A DNA stretch of 64,000 nt, from IMG/VR virus record IMGVR_UViG_3300031918_000730, positions 15,875 through 79,874 of that record. One strand, 5' to 3'. A model generated the notes under the pieces. The model made no database searches. It saw only the letters and a program-made list of their open reading frames with translations, and was not told where the DNA came from. Origin of the DNA: a virus. A program made the position numbers and the translations under genes. Shown here piece by piece: positions 3,221 to 63,985 of the stretch (its first letter is position 1; every line of letters starts with the position of its first letter).

Positions 3221-4009
3221 ATGGCTGAATGGATGAATAGTAATTTGAAGATAAGCGACGGTCTAGACGCTGATGTTGTAGGAGGTAGCAATACTCCTAA
3301 ACTTCAGAGAGAGCTTATCAACGTGAACAGAGAATACCTGTTCGCATTAACCGATGGATATATCAAGGCTATTGACGCCATGATCGAATACCTTAACAGT
3401 GTCGAGATCGACAAGGGAGTATACAGCAAGATTATGCTAGTGCTCACTTCGCTCATACTAGACGAATCTGACATCGAATACCTGAAGGACACTAAGGCAA
3501 CTGGTGAAGTTGGACGTGCGATACCTTCAATGTCTGAAATCCAGTATCTAAATGACATCCCACTTGAGTTCGACATCATTCAGGCAGTGTACTTGTACAT
3601 GCTAAGAATTGCGAGAGAAGCTGGATTCTACTCACAGAATGGAATCTTCGGAAACCTAGACGTGTCTGGGGTCATGTTCAATAATGCAAGAAATATCAGC
3701 GATGTGTATAAGACATATGTGGTTGGCATTGACGGCGAAGTTGAGGATACTCCATCTAAGAAACTAGCCCAGCAGATCAGCGAACTATGTAGGGCGAACA
3801 ATATTGTACGTCAGAGACTATTGAAACTCGCAAATGGCGGCAAGAAGCCTAGTAAGAAGGAAGAGTTCTTCATTAGACGTAACTATAAATTCGACACAGT
3901 CTCTGGTTCATTCCAGAAGAGGAACAAGCCGATCAGTACCGTAGTATTCGCACTCCTAGCAAATAAGAGCGACGCAGTATATGCAGATCTAAAGAATCTG
4001 TTAAAATAA
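3221..4009 (+). CDS. hypothetical protein
   Basis: 262-aa ORF directly upstream of the portal gene. Confidence 0.6.
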   Translation: MAEWMNSNLKISDGLDADVVGGSNTPKLQRELINVNREYLFALTDGYIKAIDAMIEYLNSVEIDKGVYSKIMLVLTSLILDESDIEYLKDTKATGEVGRAIPSMSEIQYLNDIPLEFDIIQAVYLYMLRIAREAGFYSQNGIFGNLDVSGVMFNNARNISDVYKTYVVGIDGEVEDTPSKKLAQQISELCRANNIVRQRLLKLANGGKKPSKKEEFFIRRNYKFDTVSGSFQKRNKPISTVVFALLANKSDAVYADLKNLLK

Positions 4010-4028
4010 GAATAAAGGATAATACATA

Positions 4029-5888
4029 ATGGCTATCAGAGGACCGAGTTCAGGCGGGTTTAGAAACGACAGGGTCACTGATTTGACCCATAACCCGTTT
4101 TATTCAAACTTCGAAGACTTCAGAAGAGCATCTACAAGTAGAAAGGCAGAGGCTAAGAGGAATCAGATTGGTCAGTCGGAAGACTCCATCAATGATATTC
4201 TTGGCACCGCCTCAGTAGTTCTTTACAACTTCGGAAACAAAGACCCTCTGGATAGGCGTAAGGACTTAGCTGATAAGCTAACCACCCAATGGTCTGATCA
4301 GCTAAGGATCAGGTATTCGAACTACACTCGACTGGCTAAGCGCCCCGAGGTTCGATATGTACTTGAAACCATATGTAATGAAGCTATTGTCACTAACGAA
4401 TCTGAGCAGATAGTATCGCTCAAGATAAACGACAACTTCCCCGGAATTGCAATTGGTAATGCCACCAAGGTACAGTTGCAACAAGACTTCAATAACATGC
4501 TTCAGACTGTTATGAACTTCGACAACTTCGCATGGAAGCTGTTTAAGAAGTTTCTAATTGAAGGTGGAGTATTCTTCGAAGTCGGATACTCCGAGAAGAT
4601 GAACAAGATCACTGGACTAAGACTCCTACCTTCATACAATATGATTGTGGTTGTCGAAGATGGTGAAGTAGTTGGTTATCGTCAGATCATCGATAAGACC
4701 GCATACGATACTAATCGTCAGAACATGACCTATTACACAATGGGTGGAGATTTGACCAAGGATTGGGTTGACTATCACCCTAATGAAATACTATGGTGGG
4801 ATTACGACGAAAGAGGATTCGGTGGCATTAACGATAGGCTCTCATTCCTTGAGAATGCTCGTAAGGTTGCTAATCAGCTAAAGAACATTGAAGATTCAAT
4901 TGTTCGCTATAGAATCCTAAGAGGACACGAGAAGCGTGCATTCTACATCCCTACCGGAAATATGCCTCCAATTAAGGCCGAAGAACACCTTAGGAGACAG
5001 TCGGAAAATCTAAATCGCAGACTCTTCTACAATAGCGAAGACGGAACCATCGTAGGACTAGAAAAAGTCACTGCAATGATGGAAGACTATTACTTCGCAA
5101 TGCCAGAAGGTCAGAGTGCCGCAAAGATCGACACTATTCCAGCAGGCGCAAATCTAGGCGAAATCACTGACCTCAATTACTTCAAGCAGTTGCTTTATCA
5201 GGCACTATTGTTCCCTGCATCTCGCAGTGTGACTATGGCAGGACAGCAACAGGCACCAGCATCTCCCGGAAAACCCGGAGAGATTACTAGAGACGAAATA
5301 GTGCTCACTAGATTCATCGAACGAATCCAGCGATCATTCTCGACTCAGGTTGTAATTCCATTGTTCGTGATGTACTTGGAGACAATGAACAAGTATGACG
5401 AGAGCCTTAAGGATGAGAAGTTCTTCACTTGTAAGTTCACACAGTCTAACCTATTCAAACTATATAAAGAAGCTGAAGTAACCAACACAAGATTCGATAT
5501 TCTCGACAAGGCGGCTAAGTATATCGACGACGGTAGCGAAGGCCCTAATTCGATATTCGCCAAAGAATTCGTATTGAAGAAGTATTTCAATCTTAGTGAT
5601 GAAGAATTCGCTGAGAATCTTAGACTTATTCAACTAGAGAGACTCCAGACTGCCAGAAACATTTCTAAGCAGAAGGCCGTTGATAAGGAGAATATGGAAC
5701 TAGGTAACCCCGGAGATATGACAGGTGCTTCTGGCGGTGGTCAGTTCGGTGGTATGGGTGGTGAAGTGAATGGTATGGGTGGATCACCAGACGGCGAATT
5801 AGGCGCAGGTGAAGATCTACCTACCGACGACGAATTGAATAGCGGCGCAGAGGGAGAGGCACCAGCAACACCAGATGAGATAGGATAA
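4029..5888 (+). CDS. gp20: portal vertex protein (T4 gp20-like)
   Basis: Motifs NQLKNIEDSIVRYRILRGHEKRAFYIPTGNMP, MMEDYYF, GANLGEITDLNYF, EITRDEI; position before protease, scaffold and MCP. Confidence 0.95.
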   Translation: MAIRGPSSGGFRNDRVTDLTHNPFYSNFEDFRRASTSRKAEAKRNQIGQSEDSINDILGTASVVLYNFGNKDPLDRRKDLADKLTTQWSDQLRIRYSNYTRLAKRPEVRYVLETICNEAIVTNESEQIVSLKINDNFPGIAIGNATKVQLQQDFNNMLQTVMNFDNFAWKLFKKFLIEGGVFFEVGYSEKMNKITGLRLLPSYNMIVVVEDGEVVGYRQIIDKTAYDTNRQNMTYYTMGGDLTKDWVDYHPNEILWWDYDERGFGGINDRLSFLENARKVANQLKNIEDSIVRYRILRGHEKRAFYIPTGNMPPIKAEEHLRRQSENLNRRLFYNSEDGTIVGLEKVTAMMEDYYFAMPEGQSAAKIDTIPAGANLGEITDLNYFKQLLYQALLFPASRSVTMAGQQQAPASPGKPGEITRDEIVLTRFIERIQRSFSTQVVIPLFVMYLETMNKYDESLKDEKFFTCKFTQSNLFKLYKEAEVTNTRFDILDKAAKYIDDGSEGPNSIFAKEFVLKKYFNLSDEEFAENLRLIQLERLQTARNISKQKAVDKENMELGNPGDMTGASGGGQFGGMGGEVNGMGGSPDGELGAGEDLPTDDELNSGAEGEAPATPDEIG

Positions 5889-5915
5889 TTTAATTATGCT
5901 TTTCTCTCTAGAAAC

Positions 5916-5921
5916 TAAATA
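5916..5921 (+). promoter_or_regulatory. late promoter (CTAAATA), leaderless
   Basis: 6 nt before ATG 5928. Confidence 0.65.
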
Positions 5922-5927
5922 ATTGAC

Positions 5928-6092
5928 ATGGATGTTTCAGATCATTCTGCACTGAAGAATAAGCTAGTCGAATCCCTGATAAGTAGGGATTCGGCTGTTT
6001 TCAAGAAATACTTACAAGAGTCAATTTCACATGTTGAAAATATGCTAGTTTCGAAATACTCCAAGGAGATAAAGGAATCATTAAATGCCTAA
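5928..6092 (+). CDS. small prohead core protein (gp67/gp68-like position), not in ORF track
   Basis: 54-aa ORF MDVSDHSALKNKLVESLISRDSAVFKKYLQESISHVENMLVSKYSKEIKESLNA between portal and protease, with L-x-E sites and its own late promoter. Confidence 0.65.
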   Translation: MDVSDHSALKNKLVESLISRDSAVFKKYLQESISHVENMLVSKYSKEIKESLNA

Positions 6093-6834
6093 TTTGATAC
6101 TCGAAGGATACAACATAAAAGGCAAGGGATCGATTGCCGATTATCAATCAGAAAACAAATTGAAGCCCGTGTTCGAAAGCATAATGGGTGGAAATGAAAA
6201 GCGCCTAAAGCTGGAAGGCACAGCAATCCTCTGTGAAGTAGAAGGTATAAATGGCCGAATCTACTCTACCAGACATATGGATAGGCAGGCTAGGAAGTTT
6301 ACCAAAGACTACATTGAGACATTCAACTCCCTTGGAGAATTGAATCACCCTGCAGTGACCTCCGAAGGCGAACACATCCTATTACCAGTAACCGAAATTA
6401 ACCTTGAGAAGGCTTGCCATCTAATCGAGAAGCTCTATATGCAGGGCGACGATATGAAGATCAAGTCTAGGGTTATTACTGACTTGCCATGTGGAGCTAT
6501 TATTGCATCCTTGGTGAAGAATGGTATCCCTGTTGGTAATTCCCTCAGAGGTCTAGGTTCGGTATATGAGCGTAACGGACGACTATTCGTTGCAGACGAC
6601 TATCAATTGATCACTGTCGACATCGTGGGTAGACCTTCATACGGTAGACCAGCAATGCTACACGCAATCACAGAGTCCATCAACTCCCACGAAATCCCCA
6701 TACTAAATGAAGCAGTTGATAGGGCTGTTCGTGAGTTCAAGCGTGAAATGGATTACAATACTAGAACACACAACATCACCCACGAGACTGAGTACTACTC
6801 AATCAACAGATTACTAGCGGCACTAAAGGCTTAA
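6085..6834 (+). CDS. gp21: prohead protease (T4 gp21-like)
   Basis: NGRIY, LGELNHP, SLRGLGS, DIVGRPS motifs. Confidence 0.92.
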   Translation: MPNLILEGYNIKGKGSIADYQSENKLKPVFESIMGGNEKRLKLEGTAILCEVEGINGRIYSTRHMDRQARKFTKDYIETFNSLGELNHPAVTSEGEHILLPVTEINLEKACHLIEKLYMQGDDMKIKSRVITDLPCGAIIASLVKNGIPVGNSLRGLGSVYERNGRLFVADDYQLITVDIVGRPSYGRPAMLHAITESINSHEIPILNEAVDRAVREFKREMDYNTRTHNITHETEYYSINRLLAALKA

Positions 6835-10905: not shown

Positions 10906-10914
10906 ATTGTAGCA
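10906..10914 (-). promoter_or_regulatory. extended -10 promoter TGCTACAAT, leaderless
   Basis: 6 nt before the ATG at 10899. Confidence 0.7.
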
Positions 10915-13302: not shown

Positions 13303-13893
13303 TCAAAATACCTTCGGGAAAATAGCCTCCATCAACTTGGTCAGGCCACCGAAGCGCACGCTCTCCGACTTATTCCTAAAGTAATTTAAGGTCTGCGCAT
13401 CTGTCAACCCCATAATGAAAGAAGTGTCGATGTATAGCGACACCACCTCAGAAATTCGCTTCTCGAAACTCAAGTCGTCGGAGTCGAGAGAGCTAGGGTT
13501 GTCGAAGCGTTCAGATATTACCTGTAGGAATCTGGTTGTCGAGTTAATGATCGCTTCTTGAGATTCGTCATTTAGAGTGTTCACTTCATCTACGTCGACG
13601 AGTTCGACCTCAATGTCGTTGTCTTTACTGTATTTCACAAATACGTCTAAGAAATACGAGCAACCATTAAGATATGCTTCAATCTGCGCCCCGAAGATTT
13701 CACCGTAGATCTTCTGGGCTTTGTCGTTCTTATCGTCGTCTTCTACGAATGAACTACATTCTCCGATGATGTACTCTGAGAGCTTCTCCTTCACTTCCTG
13801 AAAATCCACCCCGACCTGAAGCATCGCGATTGAGATCTTGTTGGATGAATCTGCGTACTCTTCTTCTGTCAGTGGATTATCTTCATTGCTCAT
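13303..13893 (-). CDS. acidic hypothetical protein; start revised to 13893 (MSNEDNP)
   Basis: TGCTACAAT box 7 nt upstream; the longer ORF-track start overlaps the divergent gene. Confidence 0.65.
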   Translation of the reverse strand: MSNEDNPLTEEEYADSSNKISIAMLQVGVDFQEVKEKLSEYIIGECSSFVEDDDKNDKAQKIYGEIFGAQIEAYLNGCSYFLDVFVKYSKDNDIEVELVDVDEVNTLNDESQEAIINSTTRFLQVISERFDNPSSLDSDDLSFEKRISEVVSLYIDTSFIMGLTDAQTLNYFRNKSESVRFGGLTKLMEAIFPKVF

Positions 13894-13900
13894 ATTTTTG

Positions 13901-13909
13901 ATTGTAGCA
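13901..13909 (-). promoter_or_regulatory. extended -10 promoter of the sigma operon
   Basis: TGCTACAAT on the minus strand. Confidence 0.7.
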
Positions 13910-13928
13910 CTCAATCTTAAGTTTCGAA

Positions 13929-13934
13929 TAAATA
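13929..13934 (+). promoter_or_regulatory. late promoter, leaderless
   Basis: ATAAATA, then 5 nt, then GTG 13940. Confidence 0.6.
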
Positions 13935-13939
13935 TCAAA

Positions 13940-14554
13940 GTGATTGATCTATTAGATGTGGTGCTCGTGAAGTACACTGGCCTCAGCGGTCGCGCCACTG
14001 AAGTAAACAGCATATCCTACAAGACTGTGGATTCCGCCACATACCTTGACAGTATAGATTCGATCAACTATGCTGTTAGATCACCATATGGTACAAGACC
14101 AAAAAATCTATCATACGAAAACTGGATAAAATTCAAGCTAAGGGTTAATCGGAAGTATAGGAAATGCCTCAAAGGCACTGCTATGCAACTTCCATGTGTT
14201 GACCTCGGATGCGACGACATGCAAGTGTATACTAAGATCAAGAACGTGAAACTATGGATTAAGTTCCAATGTTTCGTAGACTATGAAGTCAAGTATGCGT
14301 TCGCTAAGGAATATACTGCACCAGTCAGAACAGATAGCTCAATTGCAGTGAATAACATTAGGGCAATTCAGAACCCAAAATACAACAGTGAATATGTAGT
14401 CGAGATCCCAATTGGAAATCAAGACGGTGAAATGTTACTAGGTGAACTAGACTTGTATGAGAGTGACTTTTTCGTCTCGCAATTAATTGCGTATAAGGGA
14501 TGTCAGTTTCAGAATAGCATTATGAAGGTCTGCATCCACTACGACTTAGCTTAA
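13940..14554 (+). CDS. hypothetical late (structural?) protein; start revised to GTG 13940
   Basis: In-frame GTG at the same spacing from TAAATA as other late genes. Confidence 0.55.
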   Translation: MIDLLDVVLVKYTGLSGRATEVNSISYKTVDSATYLDSIDSINYAVRSPYGTRPKNLSYENWIKFKLRVNRKYRKCLKGTAMQLPCVDLGCDDMQVYTKIKNVKLWIKFQCFVDYEVKYAFAKEYTAPVRTDSSIAVNNIRAIQNPKYNSEYVVEIPIGNQDGEMLLGELDLYESDFFVSQLIAYKGCQFQNSIMKVCIHYDLA

Positions 14555-15806: not shown

Positions 15807-17483
15807 TTACTCGTCTTCCAGTTCAGCGTCTTCGTTGGTATACGACAGGTCAAGTCCGTCGATGGAAATGCCATTGAACGAGAACGTCTTGTCAATGGTG
15901 TGTATTTCCTGAGGATAGTCTTCCTCGTAGTAGAATTCTTCGCGAGTATAGAAGTGCCTCGCTAGATTAGAACGGTACTCCACATCGTGCTTAGCTCTGT
16001 TCGAATAATGCACATCCTCGATACAGTGATGAAGGTCGAATATTCTGGCAAGTGTCTTTGACTTGTGTAGTCGAAGACTTCGTCCAATTGACTGTAATAT
16101 TAGAGTATAGGATGCACACGATGCACCGAAAATCACATTATGTAGATTCTTCATGTTAAGACCAGTGCCGAAGGTCTTATATGTAGCGACGACTATGATT
16201 CCAGCCTTTGATTCGAGGTCGGCTAGAATCCGCTCTCGTTCAGTCATGGAGATCTCACCATACGCCATCCTAATATCATAGTCAGGGTGGAGTTTCTTTA
16301 GCATTTCTGCCATCTCCTCCACTTCCTTATTGGCGATGAACTTCATTAGGATGAGAGTATTCTGATCCTTGGTAATGACTTCATCCCTTATTAGGGTATG
16401 TACTGCATATTGCGCAGACTTAGTGAGTCTCGCGAGTTCATACTCGGCCTTGGAAGGGATTTTCTTCTTCCTGCATAGTTCAATGGTGTACTTATCATAC
16501 GGAATTTTGACCTCTACGATACTAGCCATGGAAAGTTCTCCACGGTCTATTAGCTCCTTAGAGGAAATGACATGTCTAATGTCTCCGAAATTACCTACGA
16601 TTACTTTCTGGTTGAGAATGTTTCGTGGTATAGTTCCGGTCAGTCCAAATCTATACTCTGCATTGCAACATGCACCTACAACTCTATTGATGACGGCATG
16701 GTCATTTTTTGCAGTATGAAGTTCGTCGACAATGAGGCAGTCGAAACGCTTGAAATACTCCTCGAAGGTCTTCTTTTCTAGCATAGTCCCCATGGACTGC
16801 CAAGTACTAATCAATATTGGCTTCCTAATAGCCTCTTTCTTTTCCTTGATTGTGAAATCTGAATGATACATTCCAACATATTCACCTAGATCCTTCCAAT
16901 AATAGTCATCCCTGAAATTACGGAACAATTGATTTACGAGGTTAATATTAGGTACTAGGATGAGGATATTCATATCCTGCTTAATGATCCTACGAAGGAA
17001 TCTAACTATCATATAGATGGCAAGACTCTTACCTGCACCAGTCGCGGCACGGAATGACGATCTCTTATATGCTAGAGAAAGTTCTAGTATCTTCTGTTGA
17101 TAGTCTCTAGGATTCAATCCACATGCTTCACCAATCGCTTTACAGAATGAGGCAATTAGTTCGCTATAGTCCTCTGTCGATGAAAAAGATGAGACTATTT
17201 CAGGATCTACCTGAACATTCCATCCAAACTTTCTGAGACTCTGAACTCCCTCTCTAACTAGACCTAATGGAATTAAACTAGGCAGTATCTTGTATAGCCT
17301 AATCTTTCCATCATACTTAGTGAAGCGTCTTTTCTGAAACCTAGGATCGAACATGAATCCTTCAGGTCTTAATGCAAATAGATTATCTAAAGTCACATAT
17401 GGACTCTGCTTATATGGGTCTTCTGGAGTTGGTTGCCAAATTACCTTTGCATGAGAGTTATTGAGCTTCTTAAAAATTACCAT
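15807..17483 (-). CDS. uvsW: SF2 DNA helicase UvsW-like
   Basis: PRDYQ, ATGAGKS, DELH, GLTGT, QSIGRSLR. Confidence 0.92.
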   Translation of the reverse strand: MVIFKKLNNSHAKVIWQPTPEDPYKQSPYVTLDNLFALRPEGFMFDPRFQKRRFTKYDGKIRLYKILPSLIPLGLVREGVQSLRKFGWNVQVDPEIVSSFSSTEDYSELIASFCKAIGEACGLNPRDYQQKILELSLAYKRSSFRAATGAGKSLAIYMIVRFLRRIIKQDMNILILVPNINLVNQLFRNFRDDYYWKDLGEYVGMYHSDFTIKEKKEAIRKPILISTWQSMGTMLEKKTFEEYFKRFDCLIVDELHTAKNDHAVINRVVGACCNAEYRFGLTGTIPRNILNQKVIVGNFGDIRHVISSKELIDRGELSMASIVEVKIPYDKYTIELCRKKKIPSKAEYELARLTKSAQYAVHTLIRDEVITKDQNTLILMKFIANKEVEEMAEMLKKLHPDYDIRMAYGEISMTERERILADLESKAGIIVVATYKTFGTGLNMKNLHNVIFGASCASYTLILQSIGRSLRLHKSKTLARIFDLHHCIEDVHYSNRAKHDVEYRSNLARHFYTREEFYYEEDYPQEIHTIDKTFSFNGISIDGLDLSYTNEDAELEDE

Positions 17484-18052
17484 TGCATGTTATTCTTAAT
17501 TCTCAATATATTTATTGCGTTACTTATTCTATATGAGATTGAATCGATTCTAGCCATAGCTTTTTCAATGACAGAAAGAACAGCACGAATGTTATTGATC
17601 TTCTCCTCTAACTCAATATGCTCAGGATTGATAGTGATGAGGTTTTTGATTTCCTTATCATTTAGAAGAACTCCATTATGGACCTCTGGATTCCTCTTAT
17701 ATTCTTGAGTGATGAGAGCCTCTAGAGCTAATAGCTTCTTGGTATTCTTTTCCAAGAATCGATTATACTCATTATGTCTACGGACCCATTTAGACTCAAT
17801 GATGTTTATACTAGCATTGTAGTTATATAGAAGGTCTAGATCAGTAGGTACTGCGGTATCTTCCTCAAACTCATTCATCAGTTGCGTGACTGTGTGAGTC
17901 TGGTTTCTCTCGAACTCTATGATCGATGGAGATGAGAATTTCAGGTTTAGCTCTACAGTTATGCCTGCTCTGATCTCGTTGTAGGTAGCTGGAGCCTTGA
18001 GTTCTACTTCACCCTTATGCACCTTAGATCTAGTTTTCTTTTCCGTTTCCAT
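17477..18052 (-). CDS. uvsY: recombination mediator UvsY-like
   Basis: Helical protein next to uvsW; C-terminal IDSISYRISNAINI resembles the UvsY C-terminus. Confidence 0.55.
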   Translation of the reverse strand: METEKKTRSKVHKGEVELKAPATYNEIRAGITVELNLKFSSPSIIEFERNQTHTVTQLMNEFEEDTAVPTDLDLLYNYNASINIIESKWVRRHNEYNRFLEKNTKKLLALEALITQEYKRNPEVHNGVLLNDKEIKNLITINPEHIELEEKINNIRAVLSVIEKAMARIDSISYRISNAINILRIKNNMQW

Positions 18053-18058
18053 ATCTCT

Positions 18059-18067
18059 ATTTTAGCA
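18059..18067 (-). promoter_or_regulatory. extended -10 promoter TGCTAAAAT, leaderless
   Basis: 6 nt before the ATG at 18052. Confidence 0.65.
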
Positions 18068-18079
18068 TTAATGATGCTT

Positions 18080-18541
18080 CGCTAGATAGTCTAGTTTGTC
18101 TAGGTGAGCCTCACACTGGAGAAACTCTCAGTCTTTCTTAGCTTTAGATATTTTTATTTTTCATTTTTCTTTTTGAGAGATTTCTCTTTTCAATCTATAA
18201 AAATCTAAATGAGCCTATAAGAGACTGTCATAGACTCTCGCAGGCGCACCTCCTCCAATTCCCCCTAACCCCATAAGCCAACATTTCGAGTTTTGTTGGA
18301 AGGTTAGAAGTACTTGTCCCCGCATACGCAAACGCTAAACTCAGCTTGCGCACCCGTTCCCCCTCGAAGATTCACTGAATGGGTTTTACCCTGAGGCATT
18401 TCTCTTCCCTCACATCCAGCGCACTAGCATTCCCAGCACAAAAATCCATAGAATTCTCGACTGCAATGATCTCCGTAGCGTCACATGGCCTGCCTCATCG
18501 GCTATGGTATCCCCTGCTCCATGCAACTCAGACTTTCATCT
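18080..18541 (-). ncRNA. putative structured non-coding RNA or R-loop replication origin
   Basis: No minus-strand ORF of 60 aa or more; minus-strand TGCTAAGAT promoter at 18548-18556; nested stems, a G-tract and a downstream AT-rich block. Confidence 0.45.
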
Positions 18542-18582
18542 GTCAGTATCTTAGCAGGATTTTTCTACATACTAGCGTAAAT

Positions 18583-18591
18583 TGCTACAAT
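18583..18591 (+). promoter_or_regulatory. extended -10 promoter TGCTACAAT (leadered)
   Basis: Followed by AAGGAG SD and ATG 18610. Confidence 0.7.
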
Positions 18592-18609
18592 CAAGGTAAA
18601 GGAGAACAC

Positions 18610-19983
18610 ATGGTAGACGTAGAACAGCAGGTCATTGACCTCGCTAAGGTCGGAAAAACAGTAAATTATATCTCTGAACTGACCGGACTCACCAGAACTC
18701 AGATCGCAAATGTACTCATCGAGTATATCGGAGACACTGCAGTAACTGGAAACGGAGTATCTCTCACTCACTCAAGCCTTTCTATTGTTGAGGAAACTAA
18801 TCCTGACAAAAATAGTAGAGAATTGACTGTTAAGTATGCTGGCTCCCAAAAAACTCTAGAAGAGCTACTCGCCGAGTTGAAAATTGACAAGTCCATTTGG
18901 GAAGTGTCTACAGTAACCTACAACGAGTGGGATGGAATGCGCCCTAATGATCAGGGTGTGATCAAGCTCCATCAAATCAAAGTTAGCTTTAAGCGTATCA
19001 AGCTAATTGCAAACTATGAATTGCCAGCACCTATCAACATCACTGTCAAATCGTTCAATAACGGTAATGGTAGCAAGAAGAAGGCGTCTTCAGTTAAGAC
19101 TGCCGTCATTCTACCTGACATGCAGGTCGGTTTCAAGCGCAATCTGATCACAGGAGAACTAACTTCGCTACATGATAGGCAGGCAATGGATGTCGCCCTT
19201 CAAATTGCAAGGTATGTAAGGCCGGATCGTATCGTCCTGCTTGGAGATAATCTAGATCTCCCGCAGGAATCGAAATACCCCACCGGACCTGAGTTCTACT
19301 TCACCACTCAAGCCGCCGCAGTCGAACTAGCATGGTGGTTAGCTCAGTTGAGATCAATCGACCCTCATATCGAAATCGATTACATCTCAGGAAATCATGA
19401 TCTCAGGGCCGAGAAAGTCTTGATGCAGAATGCTATTTCCGCATATGGACTCAGAGCCGCAGACGATCTCAACGGACCCCCACTCCTCTCCATTCAGAAG
19501 CTACTAGGTCTTGACAAGCTCAATATCAAGTACCACCCTGAATACCCTAAGAGTAAGGTTGTTCTCAATGAGAACCTAGTTTGCATCCACGGAGAAATCG
19601 CAAAGGGTGAATCCGGGGCTACAGTTTCTGCAGTTGTGAAGGATACTAGAGTTTCTGTAATTCAGGGACACATCCATCGATACGAAGTCGCAACCAAGAC
19701 ACTGTGGAGCGCAGACGACAAGGCACACATGTATACAGCCGCCTCGTTCGGTTGCCTATGCAAGATCGATCCGGGTGTCGTTCCGGGCGTGAAGGCATAC
19801 CAGAACTGGCAACAGGGCCTAGGTATTGTCTACTACGAGGACACTGGAGTCCAGCAGTTCAGACAGGAGTTCATCCCTATCATTGAAGGTCGCGCAATCC
19901 TACAAAGTGAAATATTCAACGCAACTGAAGAGGATGAAATCATCAGTGCAATTGAATACGACACAGGGTTTAAGGTAAAGTAA
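18610..19983 (+). CDS. calcineurin-like metallophosphoesterase with N-terminal HTH; start revised to 18610
   Basis: PDMQ, GDNLD, GNHD, HGE, GHIHR motifs; N-terminal GKTVNYISELTGLTRTQI HTH. Confidence 0.85.
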   Translation: MVDVEQQVIDLAKVGKTVNYISELTGLTRTQIANVLIEYIGDTAVTGNGVSLTHSSLSIVEETNPDKNSRELTVKYAGSQKTLEELLAELKIDKSIWEVSTVTYNEWDGMRPNDQGVIKLHQIKVSFKRIKLIANYELPAPINITVKSFNNGNGSKKKASSVKTAVILPDMQVGFKRNLITGELTSLHDRQAMDVALQIARYVRPDRIVLLGDNLDLPQESKYPTGPEFYFTTQAAAVELAWWLAQLRSIDPHIEIDYISGNHDLRAEKVLMQNAISAYGLRAADDLNGPPLLSIQKLLGLDKLNIKYHPEYPKSKVVLNENLVCIHGEIAKGESGATVSAVVKDTRVSVIQGHIHRYEVATKTLWSADDKAHMYTAASFGCLCKIDPGVVPGVKAYQNWQQGLGIVYYEDTGVQQFRQEFIPIIEGRAILQSEIFNATEEDEIISAIEYDTGFKVK

Positions 19984-28545: not shown

Positions 28546-31380
28546 ATGTCGATGTTTAAGAATCTTTGGCTAGATCGCACAAAGAACCAGATGCACCTAT
28601 GGTCAACGGACGGTGCCCACAACATTTACGATTTCAAGTGCAAATCCTACGAACTAGCACCTGATCTCACAAATGCAACTATGAGAACTGTCGAGGGGAT
28701 GCCCGTTCGCGCAGTTTATGATACTTGCATGGATGAGCGTAATAAAATCAACGCAGAAATCCGAAACTCTGAATCTGATATTCAACCAGAGATCAGGTTT
28801 ATTGCAGAATACTATAAAAACGTAGATAACCTTAAGTTCGACTTCAAGGACTTCAACGTATGCTACTTCGATATTGAAGTAGAGGTTGACAAGGGCTTCC
28901 CTCATCCTGCAGAAGCCGCACGAAGAGTAAATCTCATTACCGCATATGGTAGCAAAGCCAATGAATTTGTTACTTTCGGCCTTGAGAAAGAGTTCATCGA
29001 GCATGTGTACCTCACCGACGAAGAAATCAAGAACGGTGCGTTCCCAGACGGACACGAAGATTACCGTGAAATGTCGGCTGAAGGGTATTTTGTCAACAAG
29101 ACAAGATACTACGTCAAGCGAGACAAGACACTAAAGTTCGATAGCGGTGCCGCAACTGAACTAGGTTACACTAATAATCACGTTTACGTCAAATGTGACG
29201 ATGAGATTGAACTCCTCGAACGATTCTTCACATACTTCGACAATCAGAAGTTCGACGTAATTACAGGATGGAACTGTCAGACCTTCGATATTCCATACTT
29301 GGTAAAGAGGTGCGAGAACTTAGGTTTACAGGATCATCGCAAGTTCTCACCTGTCAGGAGAGTCTACCTAGTCGAGAAGAGAAACGACTACAATAAGCTA
29401 GACCTGATCCCAGTGATTGGTGGGATGTCAGTAATTGACATGCTCCATGCATACAAGAAGTCAAATCTGAAGCAACAAGAGAATTACAAGTTAGGTACTA
29501 TTGCTAGTATCGAACTGAAGACTACAAAATTGGACCTTGGTGTCGACGGACTCAAGCTCTATAAAAAAGGCCAGAACGGCTGGACTAAGTTCACAGAGTA
29601 TAACGTCATCGACGTAGAACTTCTTGTCCAATTAGAGTTCAAGAAGCACTACCTAGAGTCGGTAATTAGCGTTTGCGCTGACGCAAGAATACCTCTCGAA
29701 TACTTCTTCATCTCGAAACGAGTAATTCTCGGATTCATGATGAACTATATGCACAACAAGGGACTAGTAATTCCGCATCCGGGAGAACAGCAACACGTCC
29801 CATATGAAGGTGCATATATTGCGGCAAATCCGGGAGCATATCGATGGGTCGTATCGTATGACTTTAAGGCCATGTATCCGTCCATCATCGCATCTGCGAA
29901 TATCTCAACCGAGACTAAATTCAAGGGTCCAGTTCCTCCTGATGGAAGTTACTCGAAGTCTGTCATTAAGGACGTATGGTACAATAACGAGACTCTAGGA
30001 ATCATCCCAGAGATTGTGTCGATGGTTGTTGATGACCGAGACAAGTACAAGAAGCTCCAGAAGGTCCATTCAAATCCTTCTGATAAGGCTAATTACGACC
30101 CAGAACTCGCAGGTTTCTACAAGCGTAAGCAGGAAGCATATAAGATCTACGCAAACTCGATTTACGGTTTGCTCGGAAATAGACACTTCCAGTTCTACGA
30201 CGTTGACAATGCCGCATCGGTTACTGGTATTGGAAGGTATTTGATCCAGTACTGTATCGACTACATCATCAAGTGGTTCGACATGGGGCTTCCCATTAGC
30301 GAGAAGTTCAAGCACGAGTTCGGAGATTATGCCAATGTAACAATTAAGGGCGTACTCGACGAGTCCTACATTTGCGAACAGGAAGATAGAGATACTCTCG
30401 GCAAGTATAAGAGACTGGTTCTCGCACATACCGACTCATTCTTCTTAGATTTCTCAGACATCTATTCTCCATTCATTGGGAAGAAGAGGACTGCAGAGGA
30501 ATTCAAGGCGCTCATGGACAGGTACTCAAACCCTGAATCCCCTGACTGTGACTCTTCAGTTTTTTCGATTCTCAAGAGTCGGTGGGAAGACAATACTTGG
30601 GAAGAGATGTCACTCACTGAGTTCTCGTTGCGCTTCGAACACTGCGTCTTCGGAGATGTCCGCACCAAAATCTTGGCAAGATGGGCCAAGGAGAACAACT
30701 ACAGGGAGAACAGGCTCTGGCTCAAGCTAGAAAAATGCTGTAATCACCTGATAGAGTTGACAAGAGCGCACTACATATGTTATCTTCAGTACGACGAAGG
30801 TGACGACCTCTTGAACCTGCCGTTCGAGAGTCGCTTCAAGCCCGTCGGCGTTGAGTTGGTTAAGTCTGACACACCGTCTTGGAGTAAGGTACACATCAAG
30901 AAACTACTAGAAATGGTATTCAATGATGCGTCGAAGGATGAGATCATCAAGAAAATTGGAGAGTATCGCAAAGATTTCAGAGATCCTGCCAACATTGCCT
31001 CGATTTCAAAGCCAGTCTCGATTAATACTCTAGATGCGGCTAAGAACAACGTAATGCCAGCACCTCGAAAAGGAGCGAACGCATTCAATATGGTGATCGA
31101 TAGTTCTGAAGACTATTCTGGGTACGAAACTATATCAGAAGGAACCAAGGCGAAGTGGATCTATGTCAAGACTCCTAATCGATTCGAGACAGAAGTAATT
31201 ACCTACAACGTAGATACTTGGCCTCCATTCCTAGATAAGTATTTCCAGATAGATCACGAAGTTCAGTTTGAGAAGGTTTTCAAGAAACCACTAGCAAAAA
31301 TCTTCGATACGATGGGATGGGGAAACATCTTCGAAGGCAACATGGATCTCCTCGCAAAATACATGAGAAAGGCACCGTAA
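28546..31380 (+). CDS. gp43: family B DNA polymerase (T4 gp43-like)
   Basis: FDIEV, GWNCQTFDIPY, YNVID, YDFKAMYPS, KIYANSIYG, HTDS. Confidence 0.96.
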   Translation: MSMFKNLWLDRTKNQMHLWSTDGAHNIYDFKCKSYELAPDLTNATMRTVEGMPVRAVYDTCMDERNKINAEIRNSESDIQPEIRFIAEYYKNVDNLKFDFKDFNVCYFDIEVEVDKGFPHPAEAARRVNLITAYGSKANEFVTFGLEKEFIEHVYLTDEEIKNGAFPDGHEDYREMSAEGYFVNKTRYYVKRDKTLKFDSGAATELGYTNNHVYVKCDDEIELLERFFTYFDNQKFDVITGWNCQTFDIPYLVKRCENLGLQDHRKFSPVRRVYLVEKRNDYNKLDLIPVIGGMSVIDMLHAYKKSNLKQQENYKLGTIASIELKTTKLDLGVDGLKLYKKGQNGWTKFTEYNVIDVELLVQLEFKKHYLESVISVCADARIPLEYFFISKRVILGFMMNYMHNKGLVIPHPGEQQHVPYEGAYIAANPGAYRWVVSYDFKAMYPSIIASANISTETKFKGPVPPDGSYSKSVIKDVWYNNETLGIIPEIVSMVVDDRDKYKKLQKVHSNPSDKANYDPELAGFYKRKQEAYKIYANSIYGLLGNRHFQFYDVDNAASVTGIGRYLIQYCIDYIIKWFDMGLPISEKFKHEFGDYANVTIKGVLDESYICEQEDRDTLGKYKRLVLAHTDSFFLDFSDIYSPFIGKKRTAEEFKALMDRYSNPESPDCDSSVFSILKSRWEDNTWEEMSLTEFSLRFEHCVFGDVRTKILARWAKENNYRENRLWLKLEKCCNHLIELTRAHYICYLQYDEGDDLLNLPFESRFKPVGVELVKSDTPSWSKVHIKKLLEMVFNDASKDEIIKKIGEYRKDFRDPANIASISKPVSINTLDAAKNNVMPAPRKGANAFNMVIDSSEDYSGYETISEGTKAKWIYVKTPNRFETEVITYNVDTWPPFLDKYFQIDHEVQFEKVFKKPLAKIFDTMGWGNIFEGNMDLLAKYMRKAP

Positions 31381-36652: not shown

Positions 36653-36669
36653 TTGCTACAATCCTCTAC

Positions 36670-41289: not shown

Positions 41290-41307
41290 TCTTGCTACCA
41301 TAAAGAC

Positions 41308-46297: not shown

Positions 46298-46714
46298 ATG
46301 GACCATACTAAGAAAACAACTTTCGCTGGATTCGTTAACATTGATAAGTCCAATAAGTATTGGATGGAAGGGCACTTCGAACACGGAGAAGACGCCCCTA
46401 CACTATTCAGATTCAATACCAAGGAAGAGCGAGATACTGTTCAAGAGGTTGCCCAGTCGTATCTCGATAATTGGGGATGCGATGCGCTTGAACTTGTAAT
46501 ATTCGAAGCAAAGGCAAGACATGTGGTGACTTTGAAAAAAAGGACCGAGAGTGAAATCACATTAGCTAGGCAGAAATCTAAGAGTGATGCCGAAGCAAAG
46601 CGTGAACGCGCAGTCGCTGAAGTTGCTGTAGTGTCTCAGGTTGAGACAGGCACTCAACCAGACACCGCCCCTAAGAAGAGGGGTAGGAAACCCAAGACTA
46701 GTGCTACAATATAG
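46298..46714 (+). CDS. hypothetical protein with C-terminal AT-hook-like motif
   Basis: PKKRGRKPK. Confidence 0.6.
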   Translation: MDHTKKTTFAGFVNIDKSNKYWMEGHFEHGEDAPTLFRFNTKEERDTVQEVAQSYLDNWGCDALELVIFEAKARHVVTLKKRTESEITLARQKSKSDAEAKRERAVAEVAVVSQVETGTQPDTAPKKRGRKPKTSATI

Positions 46715-53202: not shown

Positions 53203-53230
53203 AAGGCCGACCTTAGGGTTGGCCTTTTTT
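53203..53230 (+). terminator. intrinsic terminator ending the NAD operon
   Basis: AAGGCCGACC-TTAG-GGTTGGCCTT-TTTT. Confidence 0.88.
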
Positions 53231-53248
53231 GCGTGCTACAATATTCGC

Positions 53249-53752
53249 ATGGAACAACACACTACAATCAAGACCGACCTCAATGGTACAATCCGCAACC
53301 GTGGCTTCATTCGCGCACAGGATAGCGCAGTGGCGGCTACTGAGGGCTTCACGATGCCCCGCAGGTCTACCAAGCTGTCCGCAGGCTACGACCTCTTCAA
53401 CAACACCGGAGAGGCCATTGTACTAAAGGCAGGCACTACTTCAGACAAGATCTCGACTGGCGTCATTGCTGTGATGAGATCAGATGAATACCTTGCCGTC
53501 TTTGTGCGTAGTGGACATGGATTTAAGTTCAGTGCTCGACTCGCCAACTCGACAGGTATCATCGATGCAGATTACATGAAGGAAATCTTCCTCAAGATCC
53601 GCAATCCGTATGATACTGACATCGTAATTCCCGCAGGCGAGGCAATCGCACAGGGTATTTTCATGAACTACCTCACCACCGACGACGACTCGGAAACTGT
53701 AGGCGGAGATAGAACTGGCGGATTGGGTTCAACCAACGCAACGAAAGGCTAA
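53249..53752 (+). CDS. dut: trimeric dUTPase; start revised to 53249
   Basis: SAGYDL, RSG, GIIDADY, AQG, RTGGLGST; TGCTACAAT at 53234-53242. Confidence 0.92.
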   Translation: MEQHTTIKTDLNGTIRNRGFIRAQDSAVAATEGFTMPRRSTKLSAGYDLFNNTGEAIVLKAGTTSDKISTGVIAVMRSDEYLAVFVRSGHGFKFSARLANSTGIIDADYMKEIFLKIRNPYDTDIVIPAGEAIAQGIFMNYLTTDDDSETVGGDRTGGLGSTNATKG

Positions 53753-63640: not shown

Positions 63641-63664
63641 TAGATGAGCCACCCTCTCGGAGGG

Positions 63665-63673
63665 TGCTACAAT
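63665..63673 (+). promoter_or_regulatory. extended -10 promoter TGCTACAAT, leaderless, overlapping a hairpin
   Basis: 6 nt before ATG 63680; CACCCT-CTCGG-AGGGTG hairpin immediately upstream. Confidence 0.7.
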
Positions 63674-63679
63674 AAGCGT

Positions 63680-63985
63680 ATGCGAAAGCGTCTTAATATA
63701 GAGAGGGACGAGGAGATGTATCATACCCTCGTCCGTTTGCTCGTTGAAGTTACAGAATCTCTTCGGAGGGATTTTTCGGCAATGGCGGACGGCAATTCGT
63801 ACTCTACTGTTCGTAGAGTTCGAAAGCATCTCACAAATATGCGCAAAATTACGAAAGAGATGAGCGCGGCTACGAACTATAAGAAGGAGAAGATAGTTGA
63901 AGCTCAGTGGGGTGGAACAGTTCCATCGAAATACTACAGAGCAAACAAGAAAAGGAAGGCTGAATCAGAACCACTGATTCTGTAG
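63680..63985 (+). CDS. basic protein, histone H1-like Hc1-family candidate; start revised to 63680
   Basis: DFSAMADGN...RRVRKHLTNMRKITKEM resembles the Hc1 core D....GNK.A..R.RK. Confidence 0.45.
   Translation: MRKRLNIERDEEMYHTLVRLLVEVTESLRRDFSAMADGNSYSTVRRVRKHLTNMRKITKEMSAATNYKKEKIVEAQWGGTVPSKYYRANKKRKAESEPLIL

Follow-up and report, generated by a model that had tools for sequence, protein, structure and literature searches.

What occupies the longest stretch free of open reading frames (ORFs) in a fragment of a T4-like jumbo phage, next to its uvsY gene? The window analysed here is the whole 64,000-nucleotide (nt) stretch at positions 15,875 to 79,874 of IMG/VR virus record IMGVR_UViG_3300031918_000730, whose source contig of 79.9 kilobases (kb) is estimated to be about 26% complete. 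Its 557-nt gap (18053-18609) had been singled out by an earlier reading of the letters, here called the original prediction, as the largest non-coding gap of the window, lying at a strand-divergence point and holding either an R-loop replication origin or an undescribed structured RNA. The size and position of the gap are confirmed: it sits where a minus-strand block (uvsY, uvsW and a sigma factor gene) and a plus-strand block (gp47-like and gp46-like genes) diverge. The second of the two proposals is the one that has fared well. The locus is very probably a real and new structured RNA gene: its promoter is conserved, base changes are compensatory, G·U pairs fix the strand, it holds no ORF, and no Rfam family matches it. 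That this RNA acts in trans through its fold, as a stand-alone product, is put forward with moderate confidence.

Conservation of the locus

The gap is made of two compositionally distinct parts. Its right-hand 330 nt have about 50% G+C and a strong minus-strand G excess, and its left-hand 170 nt have 31% G+C. The RNA, of approximately 315 nt and 13 helices, occupies 18229-18544 on the minus strand, as delimited by alignments, RNAalifold, pair counts and a covariance model (R1). The original prediction had noted some 300 G-rich nucleotides after the promoter box; in the roughly 315 nt past that box, the minus strand is 34% G and 17% C (51% G+C). Towards uvsY follows a variable spacer (18068-18228, 31% G+C) with short local repeats. 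It includes the AT-rich block that had also been predicted, and it is AT-rich in all five sequences compared (29-31% G+C), with sequence and repeats that differ in each relative. Four short palindromes claimed in the same region have arms of just 4-5 base pairs (bp), which is below the repeat-listing threshold, and are not kept in relatives.

Relatives were sought by protein-anchored, motif, metagenome and genome scans. A DNA-level search of the phage collection matched no sequenced phage. The arrangement of uvsW, uvsY, a gap of 530-570 nt and gp47 recurs in four IMG/VR contigs, two of them identical in the region, and further copies lie on a 4.1-kb metagenome contig (L139) and on a contig of an Ignavibacteria metagenome-assembled genome (MAG) that is identical to relative L002. 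L139 was the one homolog added by the metagenome scan, and the MAG copy was the sole addition of the genome scan. Among the motif searches, an exact scan with a 17-mer picked up four true loci along with five chance ones, the 119 loci hit by a loose two-block pattern were chance matches, and a three-block pattern returned the known four alone. The resulting comparison set consists of five distinct sequences in two sub-clades; 11 further UvsY homologs in Logan/ENA were left out. No intermediate relatives were found in IMG/VR by UvsY and UvsW alignments, and the next nearest UvsW proteins there are only about 30% identical. These phages therefore form an isolated, thinly sampled clade of T4-like jumbo phages.

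In every case the RNA lies between uvsY-uvsW and the gp47/gp46 nuclease genes and is single-copy. For example, the relative G001, a genome of 306,252 bp with direct terminal repeats that is rated complete, carries exactly one. Pairwise nucleotide identity in the RNA block (18229-18544) is 74-91%, while the DNA of uvsY, uvsW and gp47 is 65-81% identical, lower in every pair. The conserved core spans about 18235-18542 and ends sharply at about 18235, beyond which the spacer varies between phages in sequence, length (152-194 nt) and short direct repeats. A protein-coding reading of the block was rejected: no frame is open in all five sequences, and codon periodicity is absent (variable columns 36/34/41).

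The repeats in the spacer differ from phage to phage. The window has a 13-nt pair (18099-18111 and 18204-18216) spaced 105 nt apart, L001 has an 8-mer present four times (3560-3600), and L002 has a 9-mer present twice (3590-3615). They could be protein-binding sites or slippage products.

A covarying fold

A structure-blind MAFFT alignment of the five homologs (A6) gave an RNAalifold consensus of 93 pairs in 13 helices. The covariation analysis that had been proposed as a check places this fold far beyond chance. In total, 96.3% of pair cells are paired, against 36-43% when partners are slid by 1-3 columns. Changes on both sides affect 26 of the 93 pairs, compared with 13.2±2.1 in shuffles (0 of 500 reach 26) and 2-6 in the slid controls. 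The latter preserve relatedness and are thus the fairer test, and their result is clear. G·U pairs make up 72 of 464 cells, pairing on the opposite strand drops to 81.5%, and the RNA strand reaches a minimum free energy of -108 kcal/mol versus -69 on the other. The RNA is therefore read from the minus strand, in agreement with the promoter.

The RNAalifold model predicts two three-way-junction domains and two long hairpins. A short element at the 5' end (18529-18542) would either fold locally, as a 5-bp hairpin capped by a GAAA tetraloop, or pair with 18241-18246 as the 5' strand of a terminal helix; covariation fits both, and A6 columns 7, 14, 297 and 304 change jointly in L004. Domain 1 (18480-18527) has a 9-bp helix, H3, closing hairpins H4 and H5. 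Pairing in H3 is complete (100%), one of its pairs being changed on both sides, and a C-G pair in H5 becomes U-A. Domain 2 (18363-18478) is built around a long-range helix, H6, which encloses the variable-length hairpin H7 and the helix H8 with H9 and H10. Both H6 and H8 are 100% paired, and the outer H8 pair occurs as three types (C-G, U-A and G-C). H7 varies in length and sequence yet remains a hairpin, with seven pairs changed on both sides.

Downstream of these domains, hairpin H11 (18321-18356) has 13 bp, 7 of which are changed on both sides, and an invariant loop containing GAGUU (18338-18342). The long bulged hairpin H12/H13 (18257-18314) has the G-tract as its 3' strand and an invariant loop containing AACUC (18288-18292). 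Pair types in H13 include A-U, C-G and U-A. The two invariant loops are complementary over 5 nt and their stems vary, which makes it probable that the loops kiss, a contact that covariation cannot address as invariant columns cannot covary. An invariant self-complementary 8-mer lies at 18308-18315.

Several elements of this fold had been seen by eye in the original prediction. Its nested stems (CTAACC/GGTTAG around CCAACA/TGTTGG) correspond to H12/H13, which shows three pair types at two positions, and its GGGT-TTT-ACCC hairpin is H10, a GGG-loop-CCC structure in which G-C becomes A-U in relatives. The G-tract at 18249-18272 is present as described. For the TGAGG/CCTCA stem, the inner 3 bp are kept in relatives and the remainder is not. 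The supposed GC-GCAA-GC tetraloop forms no hairpin, and its bases belong to the 5' strand of the 13-bp helix H11. Two further candidates were rejected: a look-alike of the 11-nt tetraloop receptor is not conserved, and TGAGYCT is not enriched as a genome-wide site.

Promoters and transcript ends

The extended -10 box of the RNA gene, TGCTAAGAT, was found at 18548-18556 on the minus strand, where it had been predicted. It is conserved in five of five homologs, with a predicted start at about 18541-18543. Back to back with it lies the divergent box of the gp47-like gene (18583-18591, plus strand), which is conserved in all relatives. A proximal uvsY box (18059-18067, minus strand) stands 6 nt ahead of the ATG in a leaderless arrangement, and relatives keep both the -10 hexamer of this box and the distance from it to the ATG.

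The window contains 23 copies of the pattern TGCTANNAT where 9.25 are expected, a 2.5-fold excess that 0 of 100 shuffles reach. A pattern scan places eight of these boxes 6-7 nt ahead of the ATG of a long ORF (101-377 amino acids), including uvsY: three on the minus strand (10906-10914, 13901-13909 and 18059-18067) and five others (36654-36662, 41293-41301, 46702-46710, 53234-53242 and 63665-63673). Because of this enrichment and fixed spacing, the box behaves as a genuine -10 element. Other copies precede gp47 and a 944-amino-acid ORF at 28546, in these cases with a leader. Promoters of the same class as the putative RNA promoter drive the replication and recombination genes nearby. As a side observation, the spacing suggests that a large share of the phage's mRNAs from this promoter class is leaderless, and the true starts of the ORFs listed at 13303-14013, 53219-53752 and 63644-63985 are probably downstream ATGs near the boxes.

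The downstream end is less sharply defined. A terminator-like hairpin with a U-rich tail (18211-18237, minus strand) is present in this window alone, and the 3' end of the RNA is therefore not fixed. A 3-codon ORF at the RNA start is not conserved in homologs.

Searches against known RNA families

No Rfam 15 family matches the RNA. Across the whole window, none of the 4227 models reached its gathering score, and a search of 356 nt at E values up to 10 with lax filters returned only chance-level matches to unrelated eukaryotic and archaeal families. ARAGORN likewise found nothing in the window. The candidates of the 10,000-csRNA paper are no longer than 151 nt.

The covariance model R1 has 316 positions, matches 18229-18545 at 336 bits and finds one copy per phage genome. 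It had no match in 79 other T4-like loci or in the uvsY regions of T4, the cyanophage S-SZBM1 and Klebsiella phage F48. In the 79 distant loci, large gaps are few and not alike, and one that was inspected (L253) holds small ORFs. A scan of 151 genomes of the MAG's class recovered the phage contig itself, one chance match of 18.6 bits and nothing more.

Within the complete relative, a cluster of 41 transfer RNA (tRNA) genes and a transfer-messenger RNA (tmRNA; tag AEESYSYALAA) lies at about 281-297 kb (L176 1348-16896). Two more tRNAs elsewhere bring the total to 43. No Rfam families besides tRNA and tmRNA were found in the whole of this genome.

What the RNA might do

The reading favoured here is that of a stand-alone RNA acting through its shape, given that the fold is complex, its loops are invariant, conservation ends sharply, the spacer is unconserved and uvsY has a separate promoter. 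Its own extended -10 promoter would direct leftward transcription at the time of phage DNA replication and recombination, and the RNA would fold into a compact multi-domain shape in which the invariant loops of the two long hairpins make a loop-loop contact. The stable, trans-acting product could be a protein-binding or self-assembling scaffold, or an RNA of ribozyme grade. Several points weigh against this. All members are metagenomic, and the RNA is predicted from their DNA sequences. The five sequences in two sub-clades offer few independent covariation events, partly shared by descent, and for the single sequence the fold outdoes shuffles by only a modest margin (z = -1.6). The four relatives have no equivalent of the intrinsic terminator after the RNA, which may thus be only the 5' part of the uvsY-uvsW transcript. 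Action in trans is inferred from complexity and the conservation edge.

The missing terminator bears directly on a second reading, in which the structured region is a cis-acting 5' leader of a long uvsY-uvsW transcript, serving put/EAR-style processive antitermination by modifying RNA polymerase, message stabilisation or signal sensing. The RNA is co-oriented with uvsY-uvsW and stands at the head of the entire minus-strand block, it is separated from uvsY by no conserved terminator, and its promoter lies directly ahead of the structured part, as in put sites. However, uvsY has its own, leaderless promoter box, the length-variable and unconserved spacer parts the fold from uvsY and holds no conserved expression platform, and no riboswitch class in Rfam matches. 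Known antitermination RNAs measure 70-120 nt, compared with 315 nt and 13 helices here. The leader reading is judged quite improbable. Still further down the scale, and close to negligible, is the idea that the RNA has diverged strongly from a known class (RNase P RNA, tmRNA, a group I/II intron, 6S or GOLLD/ROOL), or that the locus is a protein-coding remnant or a DNA site. Its appeal lies in a size equal to that of the smallest RNase P RNAs, a 5' end that resembles RNase P conserved region I by eye, and the presence in the complete relative of 43 tRNAs and a tmRNA needing 5' processing. Against it, even the lax Rfam search gave nothing above chance level; the region I-like bases are not constant (U to C, C to U) and covary with a partner next to them, and the conserved block offers no complementary 3' strand for P4; and the tmRNA of the complete relative is a separate gene some 200 kb from the locus. 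An intron would require flanking exons or an ORF, and there are none; 6S and riboswitch readings find no matching Rfam class; and G·U pairs together with compensatory changes favour RNA over a DNA site.

The remaining reading is that of an origin-primer RNA, in which the folded transcript would hybridise persistently to its template at or before the AT-rich spacer and prime the leading strand, as a counterpart of T4 oriF that resembles ColE1 RNA II, with UvsW, whose gene lies just downstream, later removing the hybrid. The locus invites this comparison. The T4 origin oriF is located at uvsY and primed by the uvsY transcript (HM137666.1 annotation), and T4 origins in general combine a promoter with an A+T-rich unwinding element at transcriptional divergence points with composition shifts (PMC3016281). 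Here, too, transcription diverges beside uvsY and uvsW, with a local skew dip, a promoter and a G-rich RNA strand (G/C about 1.8), and the spacer is AT-rich in all relatives. Short direct repeats, different in each relative, lie in the spacer, which no conserved terminator separates from the RNA; among T4 origins, oriE has iterons (PMC3016281). However, T4-type R-loops form in the unwinding element directly after the promoter and require no specific sequence (PMC3016281), whereas the first 315 or so transcribed nucleotides here have 48-51% G+C in five of five homologs and are selected for an RNA fold. The AT-rich spacer starts about 320 nt from the promoter, no T4-type unwinding element was found within about 100 bp, and the RNA-sense spacer is A-rich, which would make for weak hybrids. 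The G-tract or G-quadruplex anchor of the original prediction is also unsupported: the tract is the 3' strand of the covarying helix H12, and a three-tier G-quadruplex motif occurs in one of five homologs (L004), with its first two G-runs in that same strand. Cumulative GC skew, another proposed check, tracks gene orientation in the complete relative and has no global extremum at the locus beyond the local strand switch. Finally, an antisense promoter that could serve an RNA I-like regulator is not conserved at the locus among the window and its four relatives. The primer reading is judged unlikely. A variant in which folding precedes hybrid formation, by analogy with ColE1 RNA II, is no more than a possibility. 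In the wider form of a folded initiator of the phage's replication origin, an oriF counterpart that acts via its conserved fold as ColE1 RNA II does, the idea is doubtful, if a little easier to entertain. The alternative to such an initiator is that the RNA may be a new large self-assembling or catalytic phage RNA.

RNAs above 300 nt with complex folds are few, and most of those known are ribozymes or large assemblies; each new family of this kind is therefore a candidate for new RNA biochemistry. The uvsY-side RNA is small enough for transcription and structure solution. It also belongs to the module for replication and recombination of a jumbo phage, beside uvsY. In T4 the uvsY locus is a replication origin, and what governs R-loop formation there has yet to be settled (PMC3016281).

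Neighbouring genes and other observations

Left of the gap, the minus strand carries the genes for a uvsY-like recombination mediator (17477-18052; PF11056 and phrog_231) and a uvsW-like helicase (15807-17483; UvsW_N, ResIII and Helicase_C), followed further left by an RpoD-like sigma factor gene. To the right, on the plus strand, are the genes for a gp47/Mre11-like metallophosphoesterase (18610-19983) and a gp46/Rad50-like ATPase. The true start of the gp47-like gene is at 18610, after a conserved Shine-Dalgarno sequence. A 77-codon upstream extension of its ORF (18379-18609, plus strand), which overlaps the RNA gene in antisense, was rejected as an ORF-calling artefact, since it is closed in relatives.

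Other features were seen in the relatives. In L004 (IMGVR_UViG_3300037104_000191), the gp47-like ORF (3875-6349) encodes 824 amino acids and matches the 457-amino-acid protein of the window over residues 1-268 only, which likely reflects a fusion or an inserted intein or homing element. A 20-kb stretch of G001, at about 160-180 kb, has 49-52% G+C in a genome of about 37% and may be a compositional island. The L002-identical fragment (L152; JBAZEQ010000020.1, 16.6 kb) was binned in Ignavibacteria MAG SO_2017_LW3_13, which hints weakly at the host, unless it is an artefact of binning.

Comparison with known systems

Bacterial RNase P RNA (RF00010/RF00011) is of similar length, and the uvsY-side RNA has a look-alike of its region I at the 5' end, in a phage clade rich in tRNA genes. 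By contrast, the P4 helix and the nucleotides that all RNase P RNAs conserve are missing or variable here, and neither Rfam model matches.

ColE1 RNA II is a folded pre-primer. Like it, the uvsY-side RNA is promoter-driven, several hundred nucleotides long and G-rich in places, and its folding could precede an encounter with the downstream AT-rich region. The two differ in that the uvsY-side locus has no RNA I-like antisense partner, no known RNase H site and no similarity of sequence or structure to RNA II.

T4 oriF, also called ori(uvsY), shares with the locus its place beside uvsY, the divergence point, a promoter with an A+T-rich segment and a nearby gene for the UvsW helicase, which in T4 removes R-loops (PMC3016281). 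However, oriF covers about 100 bp, has its unwinding element right after the promoter and needs no specific sequence or fold, whereas the uvsY-side locus places a conserved fold of 315 nt between promoter and AT-rich segment. An origin role here would be by analogy.

No described family matches the uvsY-side RNA, and its closest kin in type would be the orphan ornate phage RNAs such as GOLLD and ROOL. Together with OLE, these are large ornate bacterial and phage RNAs that form RNA-only homo-oligomers, with kissing loops among the contacts (PMC12286853). The uvsY-side RNA is shorter (about 315 nt versus 580-800 nt), does not match the Rfam models of GOLLD (RF01998) and ROOL (RF03087), and is not beside tRNA genes; in the complete relative these are about 200 kb distant. 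Like them, it is a phage-borne, multi-helix non-coding RNA with no assigned function, kept by covariation. By analogy, its complementary invariant loops and self-complementary 8-mer could kiss as well, and oligomerisation is, at present, only an idea that this likeness brings to mind.
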